A stretch of DNA of 64,000 nucleotides from an uncultured Planctomycetota bacterium (GTDB lineage: Bacteria; Planctomycetota; Planctomycetia; Isosphaerales; Isosphaeraceae): positions 96,001 to 160,000 of the forward strand of contig CAWJTV010000005.1 in the NCBI GenBank assembly GCA_963845755.1, in the 5' to 3' direction. Below the pieces are notes generated by a model. That model was given only the letters and a program-made list of their open reading frames with translations, was not told the DNA's origin and made no database searches. Positions 30,229 to 45,329 of this stretch are shown one piece after another. The position numbers were made by a program, and so were the translations under genes. How positions within the stretch are numbered: the stretch's first letter is position 1; each line of letters begins with the position of its first letter.

Positions 30229-31228
30229 TCAAGCGAGTCGGTTTACCGTCCGGATGGACTTGCGTCGGCGTCTGCGGAACGTCTGTGCGCCTGGGGTCGT
30301 AGTCGCGGGCCGCGGCTCGTAGCAGGGCCAGATCAGGTGGGCCACGGCGTCAGCAGGGGCATTGGCAATTCGGCTTTCAAGCTGCCTGAGATAATCGGCG
30401 ACGGCGATGGACTCGTCTCCGGCTTTGAGCCATCCGAGCGGTTCGATCTCGAGAGCGAACCGGCCTCCCGGTGCATGAGTGCAGAAGACCAGAAAGACTG
30501 GTGAATGGGTCAAGACAGCGAGCTCGGTCCAGATGGCCAGCAGCCGTTGGGGCCGGCCCAGCAGCCGGCCGGGACAGGTATTCGGCCCGTTCCAAGGGAT
30601 GTCGCCGTTCATGTAAATGGCCATACCATCGCGGAGGGCGGCCCGCGCGCGAAGGAGGCGCTCGACGGCCCCGCACGGGGTCAGGTCTCGCCGCAGGAAC
30701 AGCTCGGATTGCGGATGTGGGCCGCCCATGTCAAACCGGCGATTCAGCTCGTGCGAGACGTGCCGAGGGCGTTGGACCAGCAGCCGTAGGGGAACACCAC
30801 GTCGATAGAGCCAGTGAACCCCCGCGATATGGGCCCCAAGGTGGCTACCCACCAGGATCGCACCACGGCCACCATCCAGCGCCGACTGAAGCCGTCCATA
30901 ACCGTGCACGTCGAAGCGGGCCAGAACCTCCGCGTCCGGCTGGCGATCTAGCGGGTAGTCGCGAGCCAGGAACCGGGCGGTGTTCGCCGCAAGGGCCGGC
31001 CAGGTCGCCTCGAGCGGCCAGTCCGCCTCGAGCGCATCCCCGGCGCGCCGCAACGCCGTGCGCAACCGCGCCCGACGTTTCGGCTGCATCGCCAGTCCGA
31101 TGCGACCCAGCAGGCCCAGAATCCGGTCGCCGCGCGATGGCCCTAGCCATCTTCAGCGCGGGCAGGAGCAGGTCGTAAAAGACGAACTTCCAGCTCCAGA
31201 GCCGGCGTAGTCGTCGCCTCACGTGCAC
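30229..31228 (-). CDS. Lysophospholipid/lipid A acyltransferase-like protein (LpxL/AlmG-like); frameshift near 31140
   Basis: 'VHGYGRLQSALDGGRGAILVGSHLG', 'ALRDGMAIYMNGD', 'LESRIANAP...W'; start overlaps the adenylation-enzyme stop. Confidence 0.65.
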
Positions 31229-32815
31229 GCTCCCCCCCCGGCGGCCAGGGATTTCAGGCGTTGATAATCGACCTTATCGGTCGAGGTCATCGGCAGACCG
31301 TCCACAAACCTGATCGTGTCGGGGACCATGTAATGGGGCAAGTACATCGTGCAATGTCGCTTCATGGCGATGATCGACCGCTTCTGGCCTGGCTTCAGTG
31401 CGACGAATGCCTCGATCGAGACTCCGGTCTCCTCCGATCGTGCCACGACTCCGGCTCGGTCCACCCCCTCGTGGCGATAGAATGTTCAACTCGATCTCGC
31501 CCAGCTCAATCCGATAGCCCCGACGCTTGATCATTCGGTCGCGCCGGCCGTGGAACACATAGCAGCCCGAGCCGTCATCGCACACGAGATCTCCGGTGCG
31601 ATACCAGCGCGTGCCGTCTTCGCGCTGGAGGAACGCTGCGTTGCTCAACTCGGGCTGGCCGAAATAACCGCGCATCACGCCGGGCCCGGCGACCACCAAC
31701 TCGCCAATTGTCCCGGGCGCGACGAATTCGCCCTGCGAGTCGACGACTCGAGCGCAGAGCGGCGGACAGACCCGGCCGATGGGGTAAGGCTCGTTCCGGT
31801 CGTCGGGGATCGAGTCCGGGATCGGATAGGCCGTGCAGACGTTCGTCTCGGTCGGGCCGTAGAGGTTCCACATCCTGGTCCGCGGCCAGGCCGCTCGGAG
31901 TCGCCGCAGCGAGGCGATGGGAAAGACCTCGCCGGCAAAGAGGAGGAGCCGCGGCGCTGGGAAACCCGGTAGGTCCACGCGTCCGTGATCGAGCAAAAGC
32001 GCCAGGATCGACGGTGCCGAGTACCAGACGTCTAGCTGTCGATCGGCCATGAACTCGCCTAGCCGACAAGGGTCCTTGCCTAAAGTCTCGCCGACCAACA
32101 CCAGGGTCGCTGCGCTCTGGCAAGACCCAAAGAGGTCGAACACCGAGAGGTCGAAATGCAAGGGAGCGTGCGAGCCGAACCGGTCACCGTCGCGCCAGGG
32201 CCCGAGTGCGCCTCGACACCACTCGAGAAAGGTCAAGGCATTGGCGTGGGAGAGCATGACGCCTTTGGGTTGGCCGGTCGAGCCCGAGGTGAAGAGGATG
32301 TACGCCAGGTCGTCCTCGGTATGCGGAGTAGGAAGCGGCGAGGGGGCGTCGTCCATCATGACCTCTTTCCAGAGTGCATCGCGATGTGCGCTCAGGTCCG
32401 TCGTCATGGTCTCCTCACCGGCGACGATCAAGCGAGGCAGTGGGCCATCGTCCGGCCATGCCCCGCGGAGTGCGGGTGCCAGATGAGCAGCGACGACCAC
32501 CGCCTTGACGCCCGCTGAGGCCAGGATTCGCGCGGCCCTTGGGGCCGGGCTCGCGGGGTCGACCGGCACATAGGCCGCGCCCGCGCGGAGGATCCCGTGC
32601 ACGGCGGCCACGGCCTCGAGCCCCTTGGGCAGCCACAGGCCAACGCGATCTCCGCGACCGGCACCCCAGCGGACCAGTCGCGTTGACACTCGATCCGCCG
32701 CCCAGAGCAATTCTCCGTAACTGAGTACGGCGCCCCGTTCGTCCTCCACAGCCGGACGATCCGGCCGTCGCGCGGCGGCCTCGTCGAGAAGTTGACTTAA
32801 ATGGCGTCCATCCAT
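31219..32815 (-). CDS. Stand-alone amino acid adenylation enzyme (DltA-like); frameshift near 31480
   Basis: 'AYILFTSGSTGQPKGV', 'HFDLSV', 'NLYGPTETNV', 'YRTGD', 'RGYRIELGEIE', 'LPHYMVP...KVDY'. Confidence 0.85.
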
Positions 32816-32954
32816 GAGCACCCTACCTGCCGCGGCCCTGCCGCAACCGAATGGAAGATTCGAGATTTCAGATCTCTCCAGACTTCAAAAACGATCACTC
32901 TTGCAATCTAAAGGCCAGAGTTCGCGACCCCGCCCGATCCACTGCGAGCGGATG

Positions 32955-34266
32955 TTACGGGCTCAGAATCGGTCCGCCGCTCTCGGAGAGCCGTGAATCG
33001 CCCTCGTTACTACGCTCGGCAGCCTCCGTATCGGAGTGTACGGGGCCGATCGGTCCGTGTCTTGTTGCCTCGCCAGCCGCGGCCTGGCTTTCGGGTCTCA
33101 ACTCCTGGAGACCGGAGGTCTCCGGCGGGAACAGCAGCCGGGACAATGACGCGTCCGCAGCGACGGCCTGGGCCAGGGCAACGAAAAGTCGCTCGTGTCC
33201 CACCGCGTTGGGATGGTCGTCCCAGGCGGCGATCTCGAGCTTCGCCGGGTCATAGGGGTCGAATGTATTTGAAAGGTCGAAGACGGAGATCGCATGGTGG
33301 GCCGCCAGGGCCTTCAGGCGCGAGACCGGTTCGGCCCGGATCTCCGGCGCGTTTCTTTGCCCACTCGCGGAATGATCACCATGACGAGGGGTATGCCCGC
33401 CGAGCGGCATTCCGCTGAGAGCATACCGATCGTCCGATCGTACAAGCCCCAGTAATAGGGCCTTAACATCGCCTTGATCCGATCCTTGTGGATCAACTCC
33501 CGTTGGTCATTCAGTCGAAGGTCACCGGCGGTCACGCCGGCCTCGCTGATCGCCTGCCTCAGGAAAGGGTACCGCAGGTTGACGCCATTTCGGAGCATTT
33601 CGAGCAGGTGGATCTCCATCAGACGGACATCGAGCGTCGTGGCCGAGTAGATGACCAGGTCGGGACAGAACGCGAGTCCGTTGCGGTGAAGTGTCTCGAA
33701 CCTCTGGAGTGGGCTGTAAGCCGCGACGGCGAAATTCAAAACCTCGAATCGGCGCGACCGGAGCGATCCTCGGCCGGTCGAGACGGCATCCAGCCAGTCC
33801 TGCAGCCGATTGGCGTAGGTATCCTGGTATCTCACACCCCATCCCATATCCATCGACGCGCCCAGCACGGCGATCCGGAATGTGCCCTCGGGCTTCTCGA
33901 GCGTAACCTCGCCGTCGTGCATTCCGAACGAATTCGTCACGAACGGCTGACCGCAGAGCGTCCGTTGGACTCGGGGCTTGAGCTCGAATTGGAGGAAGTC
34001 GTCATCGAGGTAACGGACGACGCCGGCTTCCTGAAAGCCGATCCAGCCCTCCGGCCTGCCGACGTTGGACCCGCCGAGGATCTCCTCGTAGTAGCCGACC
34101 ACGTGGGCCTCTCGTTCGCCGAGTCGCGGTCCAGTGGATCGCGCGTATCGAGGAGGGCGTGGATTCCGGACCAGTCGGCCGGCCAGGAGACCAGGCCCAC
34201 GATCAGTAGCACCAGGGGATGAAGTAGTCCGGCCCGGGCTGCTGAGCAGATCTGTTGATAAATCAT
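32955..34266 (-). CDS. SGNH/GDSL hydrolase-fold protein; frameshifts near 34110 and 33355
   Basis: 'TNSFGMHD', 'RIAVLGASMDMGWGV', 'EVLNFAVAAY', 'WDDHPNAVGH'; TM N-terminus in ORF 33937..34266. Confidence 0.75.
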
Positions 34267-35450
34267 CGTGACTTGACTCCTGGGAGGGCGATCGAGATGT
34301 TAAGGGCCGTGTTTCGGGTTGCCTTGGCAACGGGGCCTTCGCCACAGAGATGCCGCAACTCAGGTAGCTCGCTCAGGGCTGTGTCGAGGCGGGCGGCGAG
34401 GCAGCGATGGCCCGAGAGATTCGGGTGGAAGTCGTCGGGCTCGACGGCCAGCGCGGACGGTTCGAAGCCATTGAAGGCATCACTCGCGTCGACGATGTGA
34501 GTGAATCCAGCGGCCTGCGCCGCCTCCTGGAGTGCTCGATGGCCGGCCGGCTCGCTGGGACGCCCGACGCGGGGGATCAGAACCCAGATGATCGGTACAT
34601 TTCGAGCTCGGCAGTCATCCGCTATGGCGCGATAGACGCCTGCCAGGATTTCCTGATGGCGCGGTTGCAGCACGCGCTTGTAACGCTCTGGATTCCAGAG
34701 AGGCTCGACTCCAGCCGATGTCAAGACCCCCCGGTACAGAGGCGAGTCGAACCCGAGTCCCCGGGCCAAGACATAGCGGAGCCTCCGCTCGTCCCAGCCG
34801 ATGTCGGCCTCCGTCGATTCGCAGATCACCAGGTCGGGCTGCATCGGCCAGCCGACCTGGCTGAAGTGATGCCAACGCTGGCCGGGCGCATGCCCGGGAA
34901 CGGAAGTGTTAATGATTTCGATTGCCGGGCCGCCCGCTCGTCGCGAACGGGCGTCCCATTCGCGCTCGAGGATCGACTCAAACCGCTGCTCGACGTTGAC
35001 TCCCCAGCCCACGCCGATTGAGTCGCCCACTAGGGCAATGCGGAACGTTCCGGCCGGCTTTTCGATCGCGTAGTCTCGATCGCGCATCCCCTGCGCGTTG
35101 GAGCGCCACTCCACGCCCCATCGCTGGACCGTATCGCCCGTCCTCAAGACGACCTCACGCAGATCGTCGACTCGCACGACCAGGGGCGCCGAGTCCACCG
35201 GGACCGAGAAGGTGCCGCGAGAACCGGGTTGTCGGCGAAGGGCCGGAAGGTCGCCCAGCTCATTGAGCCGGCGACCGGCATTAATCACTTGCTCATAGTA
35301 TCCGCGCTCGATTCGTGAGGCGTCAGCCCGGTTGAACAGGCCGCTTCTGAGGCTGGACCGTAGCCGCGCGGGCCCGCGCCCGGCGAGATCGTCCGGGATC
35401 AATCCGAACGCCAGGATCGCGAGCGTCGCGAACAATTGGCGGCCCATCAT
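34263..35450 (-). CDS. SGNH/GDSL hydrolase-fold protein
   Basis: 'SNAQGMRD', 'RIALVGDSIGVGWGV', 'EIINTSVPGH', 'DDFHPNLSGH'. Confidence 0.8.
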   Translation of the reverse strand: MMGRQLFATLAILAFGLIPDDLAGRGPARLRSSLRSGLFNRADASRIERGYYEQVINAGRRLNELGDLPALRRQPGSRGTFSVPVDSAPLVVRVDDLREVVLRTGDTVQRWGVEWRSNAQGMRDRDYAIEKPAGTFRIALVGDSIGVGWGVNVEQRFESILEREWDARSRRAGGPAIEIINTSVPGHAPGQRWHHFSQVGWPMQPDLVICESTEADIGWDERRLRYVLARGLGFDSPLYRGVLTSAGVEPLWNPERYKRVLQPRHQEILAGVYRAIADDCRARNVPIIWVLIPRVGRPSEPAGHRALQEAAQAAGFTHIVDASDAFNGFEPSALAVEPDDFHPNLSGHRCLAARLDTALSELPELRHLCGEGPVAKATRNTALNISIALPGVKSR

Positions 35451-35454
35451 CCCG

Positions 35455-36869
35455 TCATGATCCATAGAAACCTCGGTGAAGCATGTCCAGCCATGCCGAC
35501 AGGCTGGGGCTCGACCAGAGCGACCAGAGGACGGCGATGGTCATGAAGATCCCGGCGACCCTCACGACACGCACGGCCAGTTCGCGCGGCGCCACGATGT
35601 CGTGCCCGTGTCTCCGGAGGCGCGCCCCGTTCCTGCACGGCTGCGCCGGGCGTCGAACTGGACATTCAGCATTACCAGGATGCCGAGTGTGCCCCAGAAG
35701 AGGGCGTCGGGCACCGTGAAGCCCCAGCTCCCGACCAGCCAGTACCTCTGGTAGGCGTGCAATATCCATGTGGCCAGGAATACCGTGACGATACCCATTG
35801 CGAGTGCCGCCGGTTGCGGCCATCGCTTCAGCCGGAACACCACCGGATTGAAGAACACCCTCACCATGAAATCCTTCCAGTAGATGTTGATTCGCCGCCA
35901 ATAGTCGGTGAAGCTCGTCGCCAGCAGGTAGTGGTGGTGGGTCGCCGGGAGGCGGTATCCGAAGAGGTGGAGCATCCCACAGGCCATGTGAAACTGGCCT
36001 GAGACCTGCAAATAAAGCAGGTAATTGCCGACGATATGGCCCGCCAGTCCGACGAGATCGTGCACATCGCCGGACTGGATCGAATATCGGTTATAGAGCA
36101 GGCGATAGCCCAGAAGATGCACCGTCCCCTGGAACATCATCGCCAGCCCACGCCGCTGGATCGCATGGATGTCGTCAACAAAGTACCCTCGCTGCATCGT
36201 CCGGTAATCGATTACGGGAAAGAGCTGGAAGCAGAAGTTTGGCAGGATGAAGAAATAGCCCAGCGTGTCGGCCAGCGGTTCGGGCGCCGTCGAGTGCTTG
36301 AGTTCATAGAGATAAATAATTATCCGAAACATGAACATGGATGCCACAATGGGCCAGACATTGTCGGGGATGCCGAAGGAGGAAGCTCCGGGTCGGGCCA
36401 GGATCGTGACCGCCGCGATCGCGGCGCAGGCTGACGCGCGAGCTGCCCACGGGATGCGAAGGTAGCAGACGCCGATCAGGACCGCGGCCATCGCCAGTAC
36501 GATGGCGGTGGTCCACGTGCCGCCGACCGAGATCAGGCCGACGATCGAGACCGCGACGAGACAGGGCTTCTTCCAGCGGAATGGAGCTAGGTAGTGTACC
36601 GGAAATGCCAGGAGCGCGATGAGGGCCAGGTTCTGAAAGGTCCGACCCTGATAGGGGCGTTCCTCGAGATGATAAACCTTGAATACCGCCACGAGCAGCG
36701 CGAGGTGAATCAGGTTACGCAGGAACGGGCGGAGGCTCCGACGGCATGACTCGGGCTCATCCGGGTACAGGGCCGAGAAACGCCGGCGCCGGCGAGGCTT
36801 CGATACGGGCACGTACTGATGGTGCGGCGCCCGCTTCGTTGCGACCGTCGTTCGAAATCCTGGCCCCAT
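35455..36869 (-). CDS. MBOAT-family membrane-bound O-acyltransferase (DltB/AlgI-like); frameshift near 35590
   Basis: Multi-TM; 'YLLATSFTDYWRRINIYWKDF' and His in 'ATWILHAYQ'; last TM in ORF 35455..35901. Confidence 0.8.
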
Positions 36870-36987: not shown

Positions 36988-37129
36988 CGCCGTTTTGTAG
37001 ACTGATCACGCTGGGAGCCGGTCCCGGCCGATGGACCTGATCCTCACCTTGTCTACGTGCTCACACCGACGTGTGATCTTCAGGAGCAGCGGTCATACGG
37101 GACGACGGGATCGCAGAAGGTGGGAAGGT

Positions 37130-37381
37130 CGGGGTGCCTGGAAACGGCGGGGACCGGTTCCTCCGTGAACCGGTGAGTTCCCCGCTGCGGCCGCGCCATC
37201 CGTGTTTCGCCTGATATCAATCCTTGTATCGGTTTGCCGCCAGGGAACTGCGGGGACCGGCTCCTCCGTGAACCGGTGAGATTCCCCGCTGCGGCCGCGC
37301 CATCCTTGATACGCATTTATTTCTTTCTTTCAATCTTTGTTTTCGCGGATGTCGCTCGCCGGTTGTCCTCCTTCAGCAACG
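37130..37381 (-). ncRNA. Candidate CsrA/RsmA-binding RNA (CsrB-like sRNA or 5' leader) with a duplicated ~55-bp hairpin unit
   Basis: Five CANGGA motifs on the minus strand; two in hairpins ACCGGTTC-ACGGAG-GA(A/G)CCGGT; direct repeat of ~37148-37201 at ~37250-37305; no credible ORF. Confidence 0.5.
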
Positions 37382-37387
37382 ATCGCG

Positions 37388-37416
37388 ATTTAACCGAGAT
37401 CCCCCGGCGCTGTCAA
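37388..37416 (-). promoter_or_regulatory. Putative sigma70-type promoter
   Basis: Minus strand TTGACA (37416-37411), 17 nt spacer, TTAAAT (37393-37388), pointing into the GGA-repeat region. Confidence 0.45.
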
Positions 37417-37675
37417 CCCGACTGGCGCTCCCATCGACGGCCCTTCGAGCGAACCCGATGAAGTGACTTGAGGTTCGGTCGATTCTCAACCGTCGTTTTT
37501 TTGAGAGGACGTAAGAGCGACCCGGCCGTTGCTCGCGGGACGCCGACAAAAACTGCGTTTTCTTTCCCTTCTGGCCGTGTTGGCCGACGCATGGCACGGG
37601 CTTACGCAGCCCTCCGCGCCGGTAATCCTGTTCCTAGTTTCTCGCGACATGTGCAAACCACCGCGGCGATCCTTA

Positions 37676-38587
37676 GAGCGCTCGGAAAAAATGAATCCAC
37701 TGGCACGCTGTCTGCTCTTGAGTCCTTCGGCGAGTGATCTCCCGAACCAAGGAGGACCACCATGAAACCCCTTGTCTCCGATGCGCCTGTGGAACTCCGC
37801 CCTGGAGCCCTTGCTGCCACCCCCGCCTCCGCGCCGCTTCCGCTTCCCGGGACGCAAATCCCTGGACTACCGCAAGATCCTCACCGGCATCTTGTTCGTG
37901 CTCAAGACCGGCATCGCCTGGGACGACTTGCCCGCCGACCTCGGCTGCGGCTGCGGCAAGACCTGCCGGTCCTACCTGCAGGCGTGGCAGCAGGCCGGTG
38001 TCTGGCGCCAGTTGCACGCCGTCTTGCTGGCCGAGCTCAACGGCGATGACGCGATCGACTGGGAGCGGGCGCTGATCGACGCCTCCTTCGCCAAGGCCCC
38101 GGAAGGGGGCGAGGATACCGGCCCGAATCCGACGGACCGGAGCAAATCCGGCAGCAAGCACCACGTGATGACCGACGCCCAAGGCGTGCCGCTGGCGGCG
38201 ACGGTGACCGCCGCCAACGTCCCCGAGATCACCCAGGTCTTCACGACGCTCGACGACATGCCGCCGGTGGGCGGCAAGCCGGGGCCGAAGCGGCAGAAGC
38301 CCGACCGCTTGCAGGGGGATCGGGGCTACGACTCGGAACCGGTGCGGCAGGGTTTGCGCGGCCGGGGGACCACGCCGGTGCTGGCGGCCCGCAATACGGA
38401 GCACGGCAGCGGTTTGGGCAAGTCCCGCTGGTACGTAGAGCGGACCATCGCGTGGCTGCACTCCTTCGGCCGGCTGCGCCGCCGTTTGGATCGGCTCACC
38501 GAGATTCAAGACGCGTTCCTCAAGTTAGCATGTTCCTTGATCTGTTTGAGGCTCCTGGGCCAGTGAACTCATTTTTTCCGAGCGCTC
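37676..38587 (+). mobile_element. IS5-family insertion sequence, 912 bp
   Basis: Perfect 19-bp IRs GAGCGCTCGGAAAAAATGA (37676-37694 / 38569-38587); TTA target duplication (37673-37675 / 38588-38590). Confidence 0.95.
37762..38566 (+). CDS. IS5-family DDE transposase; frameshift near the 5' end
   Basis: 'GILFVLKTGIAWDDLP', 'IDAS', 'GDRGYDS', 'RWYVERTIAWL'; ATG 37762 with GGAGG RBS is out of frame with ORF 37772..38566. Confidence 0.9.
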
Positions 38588-38757
38588 TTAAGCAGTGCAG
38601 GCGGCCCAAACCCACATGACTGGGACTGACCATCGCGTCTTACCGAGTCGGACTGGGTTGAAGTCCTGATGTCATCCCAACCGAAGAGAACATGATAAGG
38701 CTCATTGTGCGCGCGAGCGCCGTCACGGGGAATTGCAACGAGTGGGAGAATTCCAAT

Positions 38758-39312: not shown

Positions 39313-39585
39313 CCCGAATGCCGACGAAGCGACGCGGCGCCAGGCCGGTTTCCATCTGGACACGCGCGTCGATCGGCGGTATCGTTCGGCCCACACGTCT
39401 CAACTACCAACCTAAGGGTTGACGCGATACAAGACAAACGCGGCGGCTGGATGGCCGTCGCGCCGGGGTGGGCGTCTGGCATGGAAGCTGGGCGTGCCAC
39501 CGACCGGCACGTCGCGATCCGGCGCGTTCGCAGTCCGGTTCTCTCCGGTCCGTCGCTTTTCATGGGACTTTGTGGAGGAGCAAGG

Positions 39586-41841
39586 ATGCCTCCCACGCCG
39601 TCGAGCCCGCTGGGATACCTCCGGGGATTGTTCCTGCCGATCACGATCATCGGTGCGATCCTCGTGTTCGTGGTGCCCATTCCTGCGCCTTTGCTCGACG
39701 TGCTGCTCTCGGCCAACCTGACCGTGGCCGTCGTGGTGCTCTTGACGACCCTCTCGATCCAGTCGCCTCAGGAGTTTAGTGCATTTCCCACCATCTTGTT
39801 GACGACCACGCTGACTCGACTGGTCTTGAACGTCGCAACGACCCGGCTTGTGCTGACCCGGGCCGGCGTGGACCAGCTCGATGCGGCGGGTGGTGTGATC
39901 AGAGCGTTCGGGGAATTCGTGGCGGGAGACCAGGTGATCGTCGGTGTGATCCTGTTTTCGATCCTGGTTGTGATCCAGTTCGTCGTGATCACTCGGGGGG
40001 CGACCCGTATCAGCGAAGTCGCGGCGCGATTCATGCTCGATGGGCTGCCGGGCCGTCAGATGGCGATTGACTCCGATCTGCACGCCGGCCTAATCGACCA
40101 ACACGAGGCCCACCGGCGTCGCGAGGAAGTCTATCGTCAGTCGGATTTCTTCGGCGCGATGGACGGAGCCGGCAAGTTCGTGCGCGGCGACGCCGTGGCC
40201 GGGGTGGTGATTCTGCTGGTAAACATCGCCGCTGGGCTCTACCTGGGGATGGTCAACTACGGGATGAGTGCGAGCGACGCGGTCAACGTCTTCACGAAGT
40301 TGACGATCGGCGATGGGCTGGTCAGTCAAGTACCGGCTTTCTTGATCTCGCTGGCCTCCGGCCTGATCGTCACCCGATCTTCGTCCTCGACCGACCTGAA
40401 TCGCGACGTGATCGAACAATTGTTCACGCGGCCCGGAGTGCTGGGAGTGGCGGCCGTATTCGTGGGACTAATGGCCTTGACTCCGCTGCCCAAGCTACCA
40501 CTACTGGCTCTCGGCGGTGGCCTCGGTGCCGCCGCGCTGTACCTGGGTTCTCGTCGGGCCGATGATACGGTCGAACGGCCGCACGGGGATGCCGGTGTGA
40601 GTCCGGGAGCGGAGACGAGTTCGCCCCGATTCCGTCCCGACGAGAAGGCGGGTGCGACTCTCTCGACTCGGGGCAAGTCGGCCTTGCCGGCGATGAGAGC
40701 CGACGGGGAGTCGGCCGAGAGCGCCTCGGAACGGATGGAGGACTTGCTCCACGTCAATCCACTTGAAATGGAGATCGGGTTCAGGCTCATCGGCCTGGCC
40801 GACCCGACTCGAGGCGGCGACCTGCTCGGCCGGCTCAAGACGGTGCGCCAGCGCGTTGCGCGGGAAATGGGCTTGATCGTGCCCCAGGTGAGGATTCACG
40901 ACGAGATTGGCTTGCCTCCCAACGAATACCGGGTGAAGATCCGAGGAAATCAGGTCGGGCAAGGAATTGCCTACGCCGGGCGACTGTTGGCGGTACCTCC
41001 GGCCGGACTCGTGACGCGGCCTGACGGTCGCGATGGCGTGGACCCGGTCACGGGTCAACCGGCGGTCTGGATTCACGCCGACGGACGCGAGGTGGCCGAG
41101 CTTGCAGGCTGCCGCGTCCTGGATGCCGCGACGGTCGTCGCCGGCCATTTCGGCGAGATCGTCGCCAATCACGCCGACGAGCTCCTCACCCGCGAGCAAG
41201 TCGAGCGGCTGCTCGAGCGGGTCCGAACCACTGCCCCGACGTTGGTCGGAGAAGTTGTGCCCGGTCTGCTCCGCGCCGGCGAGCTTCAGCGGGTCTTGCA
41301 GAACCTGTTAAGGGAGCGAGTCAGCATTCGCGACCTCGAGACAATCCTCGAGACATTGGCCGTTCATGCCGGCAGGACCAAGGATGTCGACGTCCTGACC
41401 GAGGAAGTTCGCCGCAGTCTGGCCCGTCAGATCACTGAGACGTATCGCGGTCCGGACGGGAGACTCCGGATCGTCTCCCTGGATGGTCCGCTGGAGGCGC
41501 GATTGGAAGCGGCAGGGCGCCAGGCCGAGACTCGTCCGGCCGAGGCCTTGGGTGAGGATACGGTCCGGAGCATCATCCGCGCCGTCGCATTGGCTGTTGA
41601 AGCCCTCGTCGACAACGGCTATCCCCCCGTGATCGTCACTGCACCTGCCGCCCGCGCCGTCCTCAAGGATTTGACTCGCGCCGACTTGCCGCGGCTGGTC
41701 GTCCTGGGCCAACGCGAGATCCCCCGCGATACGTCGGTCGAGATCCTCGGCAGTGTCGTGGAGGAGGAACCCGAAGTCGTGACCACTTACACCACGTCTT
41801 CGTCCCTGAATCCTCTCGTCCTCGAGTCCTCAAGTCCGTGA
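39586..41841 (+). CDS. flhA: Flagellar export apparatus protein FlhA
   Basis: 'FSAFPTILL', 'RISEVAARFMLDGLPGRQMAID', 'FFGAMDGAGKFVRGDA', 'LLRERVSIRDL'. Confidence 0.95.
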   Translation: MPPTPSSPLGYLRGLFLPITIIGAILVFVVPIPAPLLDVLLSANLTVAVVVLLTTLSIQSPQEFSAFPTILLTTTLTRLVLNVATTRLVLTRAGVDQLDAAGGVIRAFGEFVAGDQVIVGVILFSILVVIQFVVITRGATRISEVAARFMLDGLPGRQMAIDSDLHAGLIDQHEAHRRREEVYRQSDFFGAMDGAGKFVRGDAVAGVVILLVNIAAGLYLGMVNYGMSASDAVNVFTKLTIGDGLVSQVPAFLISLASGLIVTRSSSSTDLNRDVIEQLFTRPGVLGVAAVFVGLMALTPLPKLPLLALGGGLGAAALYLGSRRADDTVERPHGDAGVSPGAETSSPRFRPDEKAGATLSTRGKSALPAMRADGESAESASERMEDLLHVNPLEMEIGFRLIGLADPTRGGDLLGRLKTVRQRVAREMGLIVPQVRIHDEIGLPPNEYRVKIRGNQVGQGIAYAGRLLAVPPAGLVTRPDGRDGVDPVTGQPAVWIHADGREVAELAGCRVLDAATVVAGHFGEIVANHADELLTREQVERLLERVRTTAPTLVGEVVPGLLRAGELQRVLQNLLRERVSIRDLETILETLAVHAGRTKDVDVLTEEVRRSLARQITETYRGPDGRLRIVSLDGPLEARLEAAGRQAETRPAEALGEDTVRSIIRAVALAVEALVDNGYPPVIVTAPAARAVLKDLTRADLPRLVVLGQREIPRDTSVEILGSVVEEEPEVVTTYTTSSSLNPLVLESSSP

Positions 41842-41970
41842 GTCTTTGGTCGGAATGCGGGACAGCCAGGTATCCGGCGGCTAATGAGTCGGAATCCGGT
41901 CCCTGAAATAAGTCGTGAAGTTTCGTGACGAGGCTCAAGGTGTCAAGAACTCGAGTGTCAAAAGGACTTA

Positions 41971-43140
41971 ATGAATCAAATGCGGTCAAAAACGTACCGG
42001 GCGAAGACTATGAAGGAGGCTTTGACGCGAGTGCGTCGGGACCTCGGCGGTGACGCCGTGATCCTCGCGGCGCGGGAAGTTCGGCGCCGCCGGCTCTTCG
42101 GCCTGGGGCCTCGCGCCGAGGTGGAGGTCACGGCGGCGGATCGCATGCCCGAGGACGTGACAGTCGAAGGCATGGCGATGCGTACCGGCACCATAACGAG
42201 GGTCAAGGAGGTGTCGGGGGTTTCGGCCCCGGCCGCCCCCTCACCGGCCTTGCAGGCGCGGTTCGGGGAGCAGCTCAGCCGACTGCACGCCATGGTGGAA
42301 ACCCTGAGCCGGCAGGGGCGGATCGACCACTTGCTACCTGATCTCCCGGGCGAGCTGGTCCCCATTTACTCCCAGTTGATTGAGGCTGACATCCCGGAGG
42401 TGCTGACGCGGCGGCTCGTGCGACATGTGGCCGAGAACCTCGAGCCCGATCAGTTCCGGTACGCCGAGTCTATCCGCGGATCCCTGGGCGAGGCGGTGGC
42501 GCAGTGCATTCCGGTCGCGCCGCCGATCCAGTCGGTCGTCGGCACCCGCCGCATCGTGGCCCTCGTCGGCCCCACCGGTGTGGGAAAGACCACGACCGTG
42601 GCGAAACTGGCTGCCAATTTCAAATTGGCCCACGGCGTCCGCGTGGGACTGATCACCGTTGACACCTACCGAATCGCCGCGGTCGAGCAGCTCAAGACGT
42701 ATGCCGAGATCATTGACCTGCCGCTGGCGGTCGTCAACGACCCGTCGGAGATGACTCGTGCACTCGACGAGCTCGGCAGCGTGGATCTGGTCTTTATCGA
42801 CACCGCCGGACGGAGCCCGCGCGATGAGGTCAAGATCCGCGAGCTCTCCGAGTTCCTCCTCCGGGCTCGACCGGACGAGGTCCACCTGGTCTTGAGCGCC
42901 GTCGCTGGCCACAGGAGCCTCCAGGCTGCCGTCGAGCGATTCGCCCTGGTCCAGGTCGATCGCTTGATCCTGACCAAGCTCGACGAAGCCGACAGCCTGG
43001 GAGGCGTTTTAGCCGTCCTGGCTCTGTCCAGTTAACCCGTAAGCTATTTGACCACGGGCCAGGCTGTCCCCGATGACATCGAGCCGGCCGACCGAATGCG
43101 TCTCGCCCGGCTCATCCTCAAACAGGAAGATCTGGCATGA
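41971..43140 (+). CDS. flhF: Flagellar SRP-type GTPase FlhF; in-frame TAA at 43033-43035
   Basis: 'GPTGVGKTTTVAKLAA', 'DTYRIAAVEQL', 'DTAGRS', 'TKLDE'; conserved 'PVSYLTTGQAVPDDIE' continues in frame after the stop. Confidence 0.9.
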
Positions 43141-43247
43141 ACGAGCGGGTTCCATGGAAATCCTGTCATGGAGAATAGTTTCTATGGGGGTCGGGCCCTC
43201 TTGGCAGAGAGAACCAGGTCACAATTCGGCATTCGAGGTTTCAGGAG

Positions 43248-44222
43248 ATGCTCATGTCCGACCAGGCAGATAGGCTCAGGCAGCTCGTGGTGGCGAGTCG
43301 GGCGGCCCCGGAGTTGTCGCCAGTGACCACGCTGGACGAGGAGGAGCCGCAGGGGGGCGTGATCTCGCTCGCGGAGGCTCCCGTTTCGATTAGCTCGTCT
43401 CGCTCCCTGCTGTTCACCAGCGGCAAAGGGGGCGTGGGGACCTCGAACCTGGTCTTGAACCTGGCAATCGCGATGGGTGAAATGGGGCAGCGTGTCCTGC
43501 TGATCGATGCCGACCTGGGGTTGGCCAACCTGGATCTCCTGTGCGGACTGGCGCCGCGATACGACCTCGGCGACGTGCTGGCCGGACGTTGCCCACTCGG
43601 TGATGCGGTGATGACGGGTCCTGGCGGGATCCGGATCGTGCCGGGTGCCCACGCGATCCGGACCGGTGCGGAGGTTCTGGAGGACGGCCCGGCGCGGTTA
43701 GTGGCGGAGTTGGGAGAGCTCGAGTCGGAGTCCGACTTCGTCCTGGTGGACGCCGGGTCGGGACTGGGACCGGGTGTGCTGTTGCTTGCTGGGGCGGCCG
43801 ACCAGGCGGTGATCGTGACCACGCCCGAGCCGACATCGATCGCCGATGCACACGCGGCGATCGGCCGGTTCCGCCGCGTTGCGTCCCGCCCGAAGATCCG
43901 GGTCGTGGTCAATCAGGTCAGGTCGAGTCTGGAAGGGTCCGAGGTGCTCGACCGACTCGTTGCCTCGAGCCGTCAGTTCCTGGGCGCGGTGGTATCTCCG
44001 CTGGGACCGGGCGCGGTACACGCCGATCCTCACGTCCCGCTGGCCGTCCGCAACCGTCGGCCTTTCCTCATCGTGCACCCTGGTTCGCCCGCTTCGCGCG
44101 GGGTCCGACGACTGGGACGCGCCTTGGTTCGAGAACACCAGAGTCTGCATCGTCGCCGTCGCTCCGGATTCTTCGCGGCGCTGGCCGCCCGCTGGGCACT
44201 GAGTCTCGTGGCCACAGGGTAA
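43248..44222 (+). CDS. flhG: MinD/ParA-family ATPase FlhG (FleN)
   Basis: 'SGKGGVGTSN', 'IDADLGLANLD', 'VTTPEPTSIADA'; between flhF and fliA. Confidence 0.88.
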   Translation: MLMSDQADRLRQLVVASRAAPELSPVTTLDEEEPQGGVISLAEAPVSISSSRSLLFTSGKGGVGTSNLVLNLAIAMGEMGQRVLLIDADLGLANLDLLCGLAPRYDLGDVLAGRCPLGDAVMTGPGGIRIVPGAHAIRTGAEVLEDGPARLVAELGELESESDFVLVDAGSGLGPGVLLLAGAADQAVIVTTPEPTSIADAHAAIGRFRRVASRPKIRVVVNQVRSSLEGSEVLDRLVASSRQFLGAVVSPLGPGAVHADPHVPLAVRNRRPFLIVHPGSPASRGVRRLGRALVREHQSLHRRRRSGFFAALAARWALSLVATG

Positions 44223-44308
44223 GACGTTTCCCTAACAGGAATCGTGGCGTATCAGGATGCGGGATGGCAGGGTGGATCGGATTTTTCGGGTTGTTGTGAT
44301 GGTATCAT

Positions 44309-44337
44309 TCAAGCCGGATGAACGGCTGGGCCGATAC
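44309..44337 (+). promoter_or_regulatory. Possible sigma28-type promoter upstream of fliA
   Basis: TCAAG-N16-GCCGATAC; the -10 matches GCCGATA but the spacer is longer than the usual consensus. Confidence 0.35.
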
Positions 44338-44397
44338 AGGACTGGGTGGAAGTTCCTTGGATGGCGAGGGGAGAAGGGGCCGGACGCGGCTCTCGTC

Positions 44398-44492
44398 GTT
44401 GCTAGTCGCTAGTTCCTAGTTGCTAGCGCAGACGAGACGGATCCATCGGATCTGTTCACAGGCTAGCAACTCGCAACCGGCAACTCGCAACT
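44398..44492. repeat. Inverted array of heptamer repeats (GTTGCTA / TAGCAAC)
   Basis: gttgcta-gtcgcta-gttccta-gttgcta ... tagcaac-tcgcaac-cggcaac-tcgcaac. Confidence 0.7.
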
Positions 44493-44506
44493 CGGAGTGG
44501 CCCTGA

Positions 44507-44548
44507 GCACAGGATGTGCGTCCCTCTCGCGCAGCCGACATGGAGGTC
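44507..44548 (+). promoter_or_regulatory. Two putative CsrA-binding hairpins in the fliA leader, one covering the SD
   Basis: GCAC-AGGAT-GTGC (44507-44519) and GAC-ATGGAG-GTC (44537-44548), 4 nt before ATG 44553. Confidence 0.5.
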
Positions 44549-44552
44549 AGGA

Positions 44553-45329
44553 ATGTCAACTAAGGTGGATGTGGATGTAACCGAACTCTGGCGGGAGTTC
44601 AAGGAACACCCCACCACGGAATTACGCAACCAGTTGGTCGAACGCTACTTACCCTTGGTCAAGTACAATGCCGAACGCATCTGGCAACGCCTCCCCGAGG
44701 GGGTCGATCTCGACGACCTGATCTCCGCCGGGGTCTTCGGGCTAATGGATGCGATCGACGCCTTCGACCTGACCCGAGGTGTTAAGTTCGAGACCTACTG
44801 TGTGCCTCGCATCCGCGGCGCGATGCTCGACGAGCTGCGCACGATGGACTGGGTCCCCAGGCTGGTCCGCTCCAAGGCCACCAAGATGGACGAGGCGCGT
44901 AAAGAGCTCGAGGCCCGACACGGCCGGCCTCCCACGGACATCGAGCTCGCCGATCACCTCGGCCTGCCGATGGAAGAATACGAGAAGATGGCGATGGACG
45001 CCAATGCCGTCGGCTTGATCAGCCTGAACAAGAAATGGTACGAAACCGACAGCTACAAGGATGTCCGCGAGATCGACATCCTCGAGGACAAGAAGGGCGA
45101 GGATCCCACCCGACGGCTCCAGCGCAAGGACCTAATGCGCATGGTCACCAAGGGGCTGAGCCGAAACGAACGCCTCATCATTATCCTCTACTATTATGAA
45201 GAATTGACGATGAAGGAGATCGGCGCGACCCTCGACCTGAGCGAGTCGCGGGTATCCCAGATGCACTCGTCGATCATCCAGCGTCTCCAATCGCAGCTCG
45301 CTTCCCGCCGTCCCGAATTCGGGACCTGA
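44553..45329 (+). CDS. fliA: RNA polymerase sigma-28 factor FliA/WhiG
   Basis: 'DDLISAGVFGLMDAIDAFD', 'RIRGAMLDELRTMDWVPR', 'TMKEIGATLDLSESRVSQMH'. Confidence 0.95.
   Translation: MSTKVDVDVTELWREFKEHPTTELRNQLVERYLPLVKYNAERIWQRLPEGVDLDDLISAGVFGLMDAIDAFDLTRGVKFETYCVPRIRGAMLDELRTMDWVPRLVRSKATKMDEARKELEARHGRPPTDIELADHLGLPMEEYEKMAMDANAVGLISLNKKWYETDSYKDVREIDILEDKKGEDPTRRLQRKDLMRMVTKGLSRNERLIIILYYYEELTMKEIGATLDLSESRVSQMHSSIIQRLQSQLASRRPEFGT

Follow-up and report, generated by a model that had tools for sequence, protein, structure and literature searches.

On the minus strand of the window analysed here, a stretch of 64,000 nucleotides from an uncultured member of the Isosphaeraceae, five CANGGA motifs lie close together upstream of an operon that starts with a probable MBOAT gene. 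The locus raises the question of whether this cluster marks a free-standing, CsrA-sequestering RNA of the CsrB/RsmY type or a CsrA-controlled leader of the operon, both of which had been considered in a preliminary description. A re-check of the sequence bore out the positions given there for all five motifs, as well as the C-G-closed ACGGAG hexaloops of both CACGGAGG copies, each of which is carried by eight contiguous pairs and sits within a bulged hairpin of 39-40 nt (Table 1). The duplication of a unit around these hairpins was also real, but its proposed size of ~55 bp was not: a BLAST search against the window's own genome (14.27 Mb, 49 contigs, 88% complete) placed tandem copies of 76 nt at 37314-37239 and 37210-37136, with 89.5% identity and a period of 104, and revealed no further copy in that genome. 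In G001, the second genome of the genus, the unit is doubled as well; no ANGGA is present there at the position of the fifth motif, but one occurs in its first repeat-like copy. Unit B has the same offset from the promoter as the single unit found in relatives. The count of five motifs is therefore due to a genus-specific tandem duplication of a two-site unit, with one further motif contributed by a repeat-like spacer.

Judged within this genome alone, the excess of such sites over chance was only modest. CANGGANG sites number 9,709 genome-wide, 56 of them on stems of at least 7 bp, and among these 56 a second site at a distance of 25-50 nt upstream accompanies only the two described here; the chance expectation for such a stem site with a partner is, by our own estimate, ~0.5 per genome. 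At least five CANGGA motifs within ~150 nt were encountered in nine intervals at six loci across the genome, where the other five loci appeared by eye to be coding, tandem or CRISPR repeats. Instead of rarity within the genome, it is the conservation across genomes, together with covariation, that constitutes the decisive evidence.

Table 1. Features of the leader region and of the operon behind it (positions within the window)
Feature	Position	Strand	Remarks
Conserved promoter	37387..37416	-	-35 TTGACA 37416-37411; -10 region TTAAATC 37393-37387
Degenerate copy of a type I-B CRISPR repeat	37328..37355	-	repeat of the own genome; this genus only
Unit A, added copy	37239..37318	-	site 1A and hairpin P2A; 79.1 bits with model R1 (copy in training set)
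Site 1A, CAAGGATG	37308-37301	-	part of unit A
Hairpin P2A	37289-37250	-	ACGGAG loop 37270-37263
Fifth motif, CAAGGATT	37219..37226	-	within duplicated repeat-like spacer; not conserved
Unit B, ancestral position	37136..37214	-	site 1B and hairpin P2B; 86.1 bits with R1 (training set)
Site 1B, CACGGATG	37204-37197	-	part of unit B
Hairpin P2B	37185-37147	-	ACGGAG loop 37167-37160; stem covariation
C-rich tract, candidate rut	37067..37146	-	3' of unit; C/G = 1.94, within the highest 1.2% of 80-mers sampled from the genome
Segment complementary to site 1 and linker	37115-37100	-	89% of cells paired, without covariation
First gene, MBOAT-fold membrane protein (probable)	35562..36869	-	C-terminus in other frame; orthologues 464-496 aa
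Rest of operon	30229..35465	-	two SGNH/GDSL-like genes, amino-acid adenylation enzyme, lipid A acyltransferase-like gene (Pfam/NCBIfam)

When 61 genomes were searched at the DNA and protein levels, members of the family showed short matches immediately upstream of their MBOAT orthologue. Most of 30 orthologous leaders hold one unit, which consists of a weakly paired CANGGAUG site (site 1), a GC-rich linker and, 33-40 nt beyond site 1, an ANGGAN hexaloop (site 2) on a long covarying stem of 13-14 bp (P2). The spacing between the two sites, for which our script admitted 30-45 nt, was exactly 37 nt in 31 of 57 loci. A covariance model, R1, which was built from an alignment of 25 units, matched 59 of 81 Isosphaeraceae genomes at one locus each; 36 of the matches fell outside the training set and one, in G002, was false (E 0.03, no MBOAT gene downstream, coding-like by eye). 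Two tandem units were found with R1 in only two of the 81 genomes, both belonging to the genus of the window. At 58 of 60 loci the MBOAT gene lies directly downstream on the same strand, the two others being a contig edge and the false match. For later counts 57 of the 60 loci were used, with the omission of G002 and of G006 and G018, which failed the site-2 rule; this rule demanded ANGGA, so that its presence in 57/57 holds by construction, and all such counts overstate independence because the genomes are related.

Outside the family, R1 yielded only weak matches, in 10 of 91 genomes (best E 0.026). The unit was absent from seven orthologous loci (0/7 reached E<0.75), from two distant homologues and from the MBOAT paralogue in the window's own genome, in which the next best R1 locus had an E of 0.885. 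We thus rejected a wider regulon, as R1 detected neither a second locus in this genome nor a unit before the paralogous MBOAT gene. A search with the motif pattern matched 26 named records, namely 20 from Isosphaeraceae or unclassified Planctomycetota, five from named Streptomyces, Microbacteriaceae or Bordetella, and one from Actinomycetes. Named Singulisphaera and Tundrisphaera genomes are among the carriers of the motif, and cultured strains are therefore usable for tests.

In the covariation alignment (25 units from 23 genomes), a three-helix model scored 0.307 versus 0.168 in shuffled alignments (0/500) and at most 0.123 in slid controls. Changes on both sides were observed in six of the eight pairs of the inner stem, and P2 alone was 98.7% paired, with none of 500 shuffles performing as well. 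G-U pairs occur in the stem, which shows that the RNA strand is the mRNA strand. The covariation among relatives that had been suggested as a check was thus indeed found, with conserved GGA loops, and the unit is not a high-copy dispersed repeat, since both BLAST and R1 located it at a single locus in the window's own genome. These findings bear on the view that the region has no RNA function, the motifs having clustered by chance or the sequence being a REP/MITE-like DNA palindrome, the relic of an eroded CRISPR array or a product of misassembly. Consistent with that view, the 281-nt region folded no better than shuffles (z -1.16), the assembly contains frameshifts, an insertion sequence ends 260 bp upstream and one repeat-like remnant is present. 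The single locus per genome and the compensatory and G-U changes nevertheless largely refute it; moreover, the duplication is common to a second genome, its copies differ by 10%, and repeat likeness, which only 2 of 57 leaders show, falls outside the conserved unit. We consider an absence of RNA function highly improbable.

A high-affinity site of the CsrA type is, in the accessible part of PMC4005645, an ANGGAX hexaloop whose stem is closed by C-G and in which N and X may vary. The loop found here, ANGGAN on a C-G closed stem, fits this rule and is a predicted site. At both sites N was represented by all four bases among the 57 loci. CANGGANG was exact at the two sites in 55/57 and 56/57 loci and the C and G flanking site 1 were kept in 55/57, figures to be read in the light of our selection, which demanded A.GGA at each site as well as the pair that closes site 2. 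The portion of PMC7652899 available to us gives RUACARGGAUGU as the CsrA SELEX consensus and 10-63 nt as the range over which a CsrA dimer can bridge two sites. Site 1 resembles this consensus, and the spacing of 33-40 nt falls inside the bridging range.

The presence of csrA in the genome, which the earlier reading had left to be confirmed, was established by 14 matches above the cut-off. CsrA is in fact encoded in all 81 family genomes, with 3-18 matches each, and co-occurrence with the RNA unit can therefore not discriminate between readings. All 14 paralogues start with MLVL(S/T)R. They also all keep an arginine that we take to be the equivalent of E. coli R44 (alignment by eye; numbering in part from the accessible text of PMC7652899). 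According to the accessible text of PMC13443453, csrA prevalence is high in Planctomycetota and some bacterial genomes hold up to 15 paralogues. One FliW gene was identified, beside one csrA on contig C20, as in Bacillus, and the available part of PMC4682653 suggests that planctomycetes may use FliW. By eye, several of the 14 csrA genes carry CANGGAGG at their own ribosome-binding site, which suggests autoregulation. No flagellin match was obtained in the 88%-complete genome, and a flagellin leader was thus unusable as an internal CsrA control.

It is conceivable that the leader structure is read by a factor other than CsrA, such as a metabolite in the manner of a riboswitch, a NusG paralogue or another protein. 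The GC-rich linker between the sites would fit this idea, because it is conserved and not needed for CsrA recognition alone. Nonetheless, both motifs obey the CsrA rules, including the free N and X and the C-G closure, no Rfam riboswitch match was returned at E<=10, and pairing with the downstream block could account for the linker. A non-CsrA reader has, in our estimate, a slim chance.

With respect to the promoter, the preliminary description had pointed to TTGACA-N17-TTAAAT directed into the region. Conservation in relatives speaks for this promoter, whereas its standing as a consensus sigma-70 site did not hold up, the promoter scan giving zero hits. If it is read as TTGACA-N18-TAAATC, the last T is missing from TAnnnT, the -10 hexamer that the own genome prefers at spacers of 16-18. 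A promoter regex, which itself demanded TTGAC and TA.A, matched upstream of the unit in 52 of 57 loci, with TTGACA in 51 and the same spacing in all 52. Transcription would accordingly start at ~37381 and produce a leader of ~510 nt. Over its first 45 nt, the transcript has roughly twice the density of GGA that it has elsewhere (36.9 versus ~19 per kb). A GGA-rich stretch at 37380-37360 (minus strand), 15-25 nt past the promoter, recurs in relatives and is possibly an extra CsrA site. Blocks shared with relatives were also seen by eye ~50-90 nt upstream of the -35 box (37500-37450, minus strand), where a transcription factor might bind. Further upstream lies an IS4/5-family element (37675-38590) with terminal inverted repeats and many copies in the genome, the end of which is 260 bp from the promoter. 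A flagellar-type cluster on the plus strand (39451-45329) consists of an FHIPEP (FlhA-like) gene followed by flhF-, flhG- and fliA-like genes, the latter assigned by eye; it adjoins the MBOAT operon both here and at the related locus L120.

The unit lies between the promoter and the first gene, on the mRNA strand, at 58 of 60 loci. A second promoter-like site before the MBOAT gene was found in 0/57 loci. Intrinsic terminators numbered zero here, and a U-tract after a hairpin was present in 7/57 leaders, at scattered places. Directly past P2 there were on average 2.6 U in 9 nt, with at least five U in 5/57, and these scarce U-tracts rule out an intrinsic terminator at P2 as a feature of the family. 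The fixed linkage, the absence of a second promoter and the lack of a conserved terminator together favour a leader over a free-standing sRNA, and of the two options set out at the start it is the CsrA-controlled leader of the MBOAT operon that is preferred, with same-strand linkage at 58/60 loci and a promoter upstream. In contrast, the assignment to the CsrB/RsmY type was not upheld. Instead of the many conserved GGA loops expected of a sponge, relatives have two sites, and five motifs occur in only two genomes of one genus; no conserved terminator was detected, the unit is fixed before one gene, and searches of the window region and 20 related loci gave no Rfam match to CsrB, RsmY or RsmZ at E<=10, but only chance-level matches, one of them a weak match to CRISPR-DR7 (E 2.6) at the repeat remnant.

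Sequestration of CsrA could still be achieved in trans, either by a stand-alone sRNA or by a stable piece of the leader that is set free through cleavage or Rho termination and titrates CsrA. The RNA has its own conserved promoter, P2 is very stable (-23 to -40 kcal/mol) and is followed by a short pyrimidine tail with ~50% U at tail positions 3-4, the unit has been doubled in this genus, which is the direction in which a sponge would grow, and 14 CsrA paralogues face a single FliW. Besides the small number of conserved sites, the paucity of U past P2 and the missing Rfam match, such a role is opposed by the fact that the unit was never found separated from the MBOAT gene and that this gene lacks any other promoter-like site, and by the proposal, in the part of PMC4682653 at hand, that FliW-encoding lineages rarely use such sRNAs. 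We regard it as improbable. On the sequence evidence, the RNA is likely to represent a new cis-regulatory family with CsrA sites rather than a member of the CsrB/RsmY group.

The MBOAT label of the first gene is probably right. This gene had no sequence match in Pfam, NCBIfam or PDB. A structural model of an orthologue, of low confidence (pLDDT 55.5), retrieved MBOAT proteins at Foldseek ranks 2-14 with E values of 1e-3 to 0.08, among them DltB, HHAT, MBOAT7, LPCAT3 and PORCN, and an MBOAT fold is therefore likely. Rank 1 was 6bug, which we take to be DltB. The order MBOAT-SGNH-SGNH-adenylation-acyltransferase was the same in the relatives examined, one of which has a single SGNH gene. Strong matches to this MBOAT subfamily were found in only 2 of 150 sampled other Planctomycetota genomes, so that it is nearly family-specific, and neither of the two (G346 and G149) carries the RNA unit. 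The operon probably serves the modification of a surface polymer or lipid, a role presumably indicated by the DltB/AlgI-type mix of genes. Compared with their orthologues, several of the operon genes (35562-30229, minus strand) and the paralogous MBOAT gene (C20:308971-310316) are split across frames, probably through assembly indels.

How, then, could CsrA act from such a leader? The distance from the site to the first aligned codon ranges from 63 to 399 nt, and 267 nt separate the region from the first gene here. Only 10 of 32 MBOAT ribosome-binding sites have ANGGA. A leader peptide was dismissed, given that no upstream ORF was shared among 52 leaders, that the ATG at site 1 varies and that the spacings are not multiples of three. 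Classical ribosome occlusion is therefore unlikely. Instead, the unit probably acts in cis, as a CsrA operator with two sites within the MBOAT operon's long 5' leader.

As for the output of this operator, our favoured mechanism, which we put forward tentatively, is Rho-dependent attenuation resembling that of pgaA. In the CsrA-free state, site 1 and the linker would pair with a C-rich segment ~30-60 nt past P2, and transcription would read into the operon. A CsrA homodimer, formed by one of the 14 paralogues, would dock on the ANGGAN loop that P2 keeps open at all times and bridge to site 1, 37 nt upstream. This bridging would pull site 1 out of the long-range helix and expose the C-rich tract as a loading site for Rho, which could then end transcription within the leader, in a pgaA-like manner. 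The duplication in this genus would add a second pair of sites and alter the response to CsrA dose. Computation showed the hairpin, the conserved motifs with their constant placement, and the genes for CsrA and Rho, and it is the docking and bridging of CsrA that we infer.

Rho is encoded in the genome. In the 80 nt past P2 the content of C was 0.36-0.43 and that of G 0.23-0.30 by 20-nt bin, and C exceeded G in 50 of 57 relatives. CATCC was found downstream of the unit in 25/57 leaders versus 3 upstream, the value for shuffles being 12.2 +/- 2.9. In a sequence-only alignment of 30 leaders, which were picked from the 57 because their downstream block aligned, the best pairing register accounted for 88% of cells versus 67% for the next. 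Ensemble folding predicted the GGA of site 1 to be paired downstream in 39/57 leaders and site 2 to be open in 52/57, and the mean pairing probability of site 1 was 0.71 versus 0.55 in shuffled sequences. Covariation of the long-range helix in the 30 chosen leaders did not rise above that of shuffles (163-289 of 500), and RNAalifold predicted no such helix. A 20-nt duplex was better than shuffles (p<=0.05) in 3/57 leaders only, with p=0.20 for self-versus-cross pairing; for a 13-nt version of the duplex the self-versus-cross p was 0.02. Compensation in the tail was seen in 13 of 21 types and was not significant. In the full-leader fold of the window, site 1B is mostly unpaired, and the long-range helix appears only in a shorter fold. 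Forcing the sites open changed the number of freed pyrimidines from 25.4 to 25.6 here and raised it by at least three in 26/57 leaders. Attenuation is thus backed by complementarity and C-richness and not by covariation, and our confidence in it stays a little short of even.

Alternatively, the same cis-acting operator could have another output, namely stabilisation against nucleases as for flhDC, a refolding that favours expression, or processive antitermination over the 6.6-kb operon. The large distance of the sites from the start codon would suit any of these, as would the openness of P2 with or without the long-range helix, the doubled GGA density at the beginning of the transcript, the precedents for activation described in the part of PMC7652899 consulted, and the lack of covariation in the helix that attenuation requires. 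By contrast, the flhDC sites lie near the 5' end (available text of PMC7652899), whereas site 1 is located 133-305 nt from the -35 box, and the C-rich block complementary to site 1 would be left unexplained. We consider these outputs unlikely, and the probability assigned to them is a share of that given above to the cis-acting operator.

The favoured attenuation model has its closest counterpart in the E. coli pgaA leader, which is likewise the long leader of a surface-related operon, in which two CsrA sites lie a long way upstream of the start codon and are directly followed by a C-rich tract predicted to pair with a CsrA site. In pgaA, a single unstable hairpin carries both sites on its left arm, and the ribosome-binding site is covered by additional ones (PMC4052769, in the part available). 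In the predicted arrangement of the present leader, unlike in pgaA, a very stable hairpin that covaries and is nested between the arms keeps one site on permanent display, and the ribosome-binding site has no conserved CsrA site. With CsrB and CsrC as well as RsmX, RsmY and RsmZ the unit shares ANGGA in hairpin loops and a promoter of its own; it differs from them by its small number of conserved sites (two, where they have many), by the lack of a conserved intrinsic terminator, by a fixed place before one operon, by the missing Rfam match and by its occurrence outside the Gammaproteobacteria.

Further likenesses concern the TwoAYGGAY (RF01731) and Bacillaceae-1 (RF01690) RNAs, which are also compact predicted binders with two CsrA-type motifs (PMC4333381, PMC2864571 and bioRxiv 10.64898/2026.09.22.753630, each as far as accessible). 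From the same partial sources, TwoAYGGAY consists of two hairpins with AYGGAY loops that share a basal stem; its median copy number is 11-23 per Pseudomonas genome, and a cis-regulatory role was rated as improbable. The unit described here is instead a single strong hairpin with ANGGAN loops in which N is any base, at one locus per genome. Membership of TwoAYGGAY was rejected, as RF01731 scored below its 43-bit cut-off in 5/5 genomes and loop position 2 was A, C, G or U. The RsmE-bound hairpin at the hcnA ribosome-binding site and the B. subtilis hag leader offer precedents for an ANGGAX hexaloop on a C-G stem and for two leader sites, but the hcnA and hag sites block ribosome binding, whereas the sites here are far upstream of it (accessible parts of PMC4005645 and PMC13443453).

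The statement in the preliminary description that no such planctomycete RNA was known agrees with the open-access literature, which gave no description of one. Within that literature, including the parts of PMC4682653 and PMC9029176 available, the Isosphaeraceae unit is not described, although subscription papers or supplements of motif surveys could hold it as an unregistered motif; likewise, no CsrA RNA target or antagonist is described there for planctomycetes. Based on the comparative sequence data, we regard the family-wide leader RNA with its predicted CsrA sites as real and new, the closest predicted two-site RNAs differing from it in architecture and copy number. As a single-locus, covarying RNA it is a concrete substrate for asking which of the 3-18 CsrA paralogues binds what. 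In addition, it is a candidate for a second natural example of Rho attenuation set off by CsrA, in a lineage remote from the enterobacteria, and through its predicted sites it ties CsrA to a nearly family-specific acyl-transfer operon.

Finally, the leaders of this genus contain a remnant of a CRISPR repeat just upstream of the added unit and outside the conserved unit. The score for repeat likeness was 33 here and 40 in G001 (21/22 nt identical) and at most 24 in the other 55 leaders; among 20,000 genome windows the 99.9th percentile was 26 and the maximum 35. The native CRISPR repeat, which is present 178 times on contig C36 (391327-403597), contains ACAAGGAT, and its end, ACAAGGATTGAAA, likewise present 178 times on C36, is a CsrA-like motif. 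A speculative combination, to which we likewise give a small chance, is that the leader acts as both an attenuator and a source of a sponge: a dedicated CsrA paralogue would clamp the two sites, Rho would release a short leader RNA that titrates the 3-18 CsrA paralogues of the family, and in this genus a CRISPR repeat captured along with the doubling of the unit would let Cas6 cut out free CsrA-binding units. If this were true, ~178 native CRISPR repeats would compete for CsrA and link CRISPR expression to cell-surface acylation. The 14-nt repeat end was found in arrays or as orphans in four of five relatives searched. Orphan repeat ends were also noted in G001, G083 and G015, and a lone divergent repeat-like sequence lies at C36:381023-381062, upstream of the cas genes and ~9 kb from the array.
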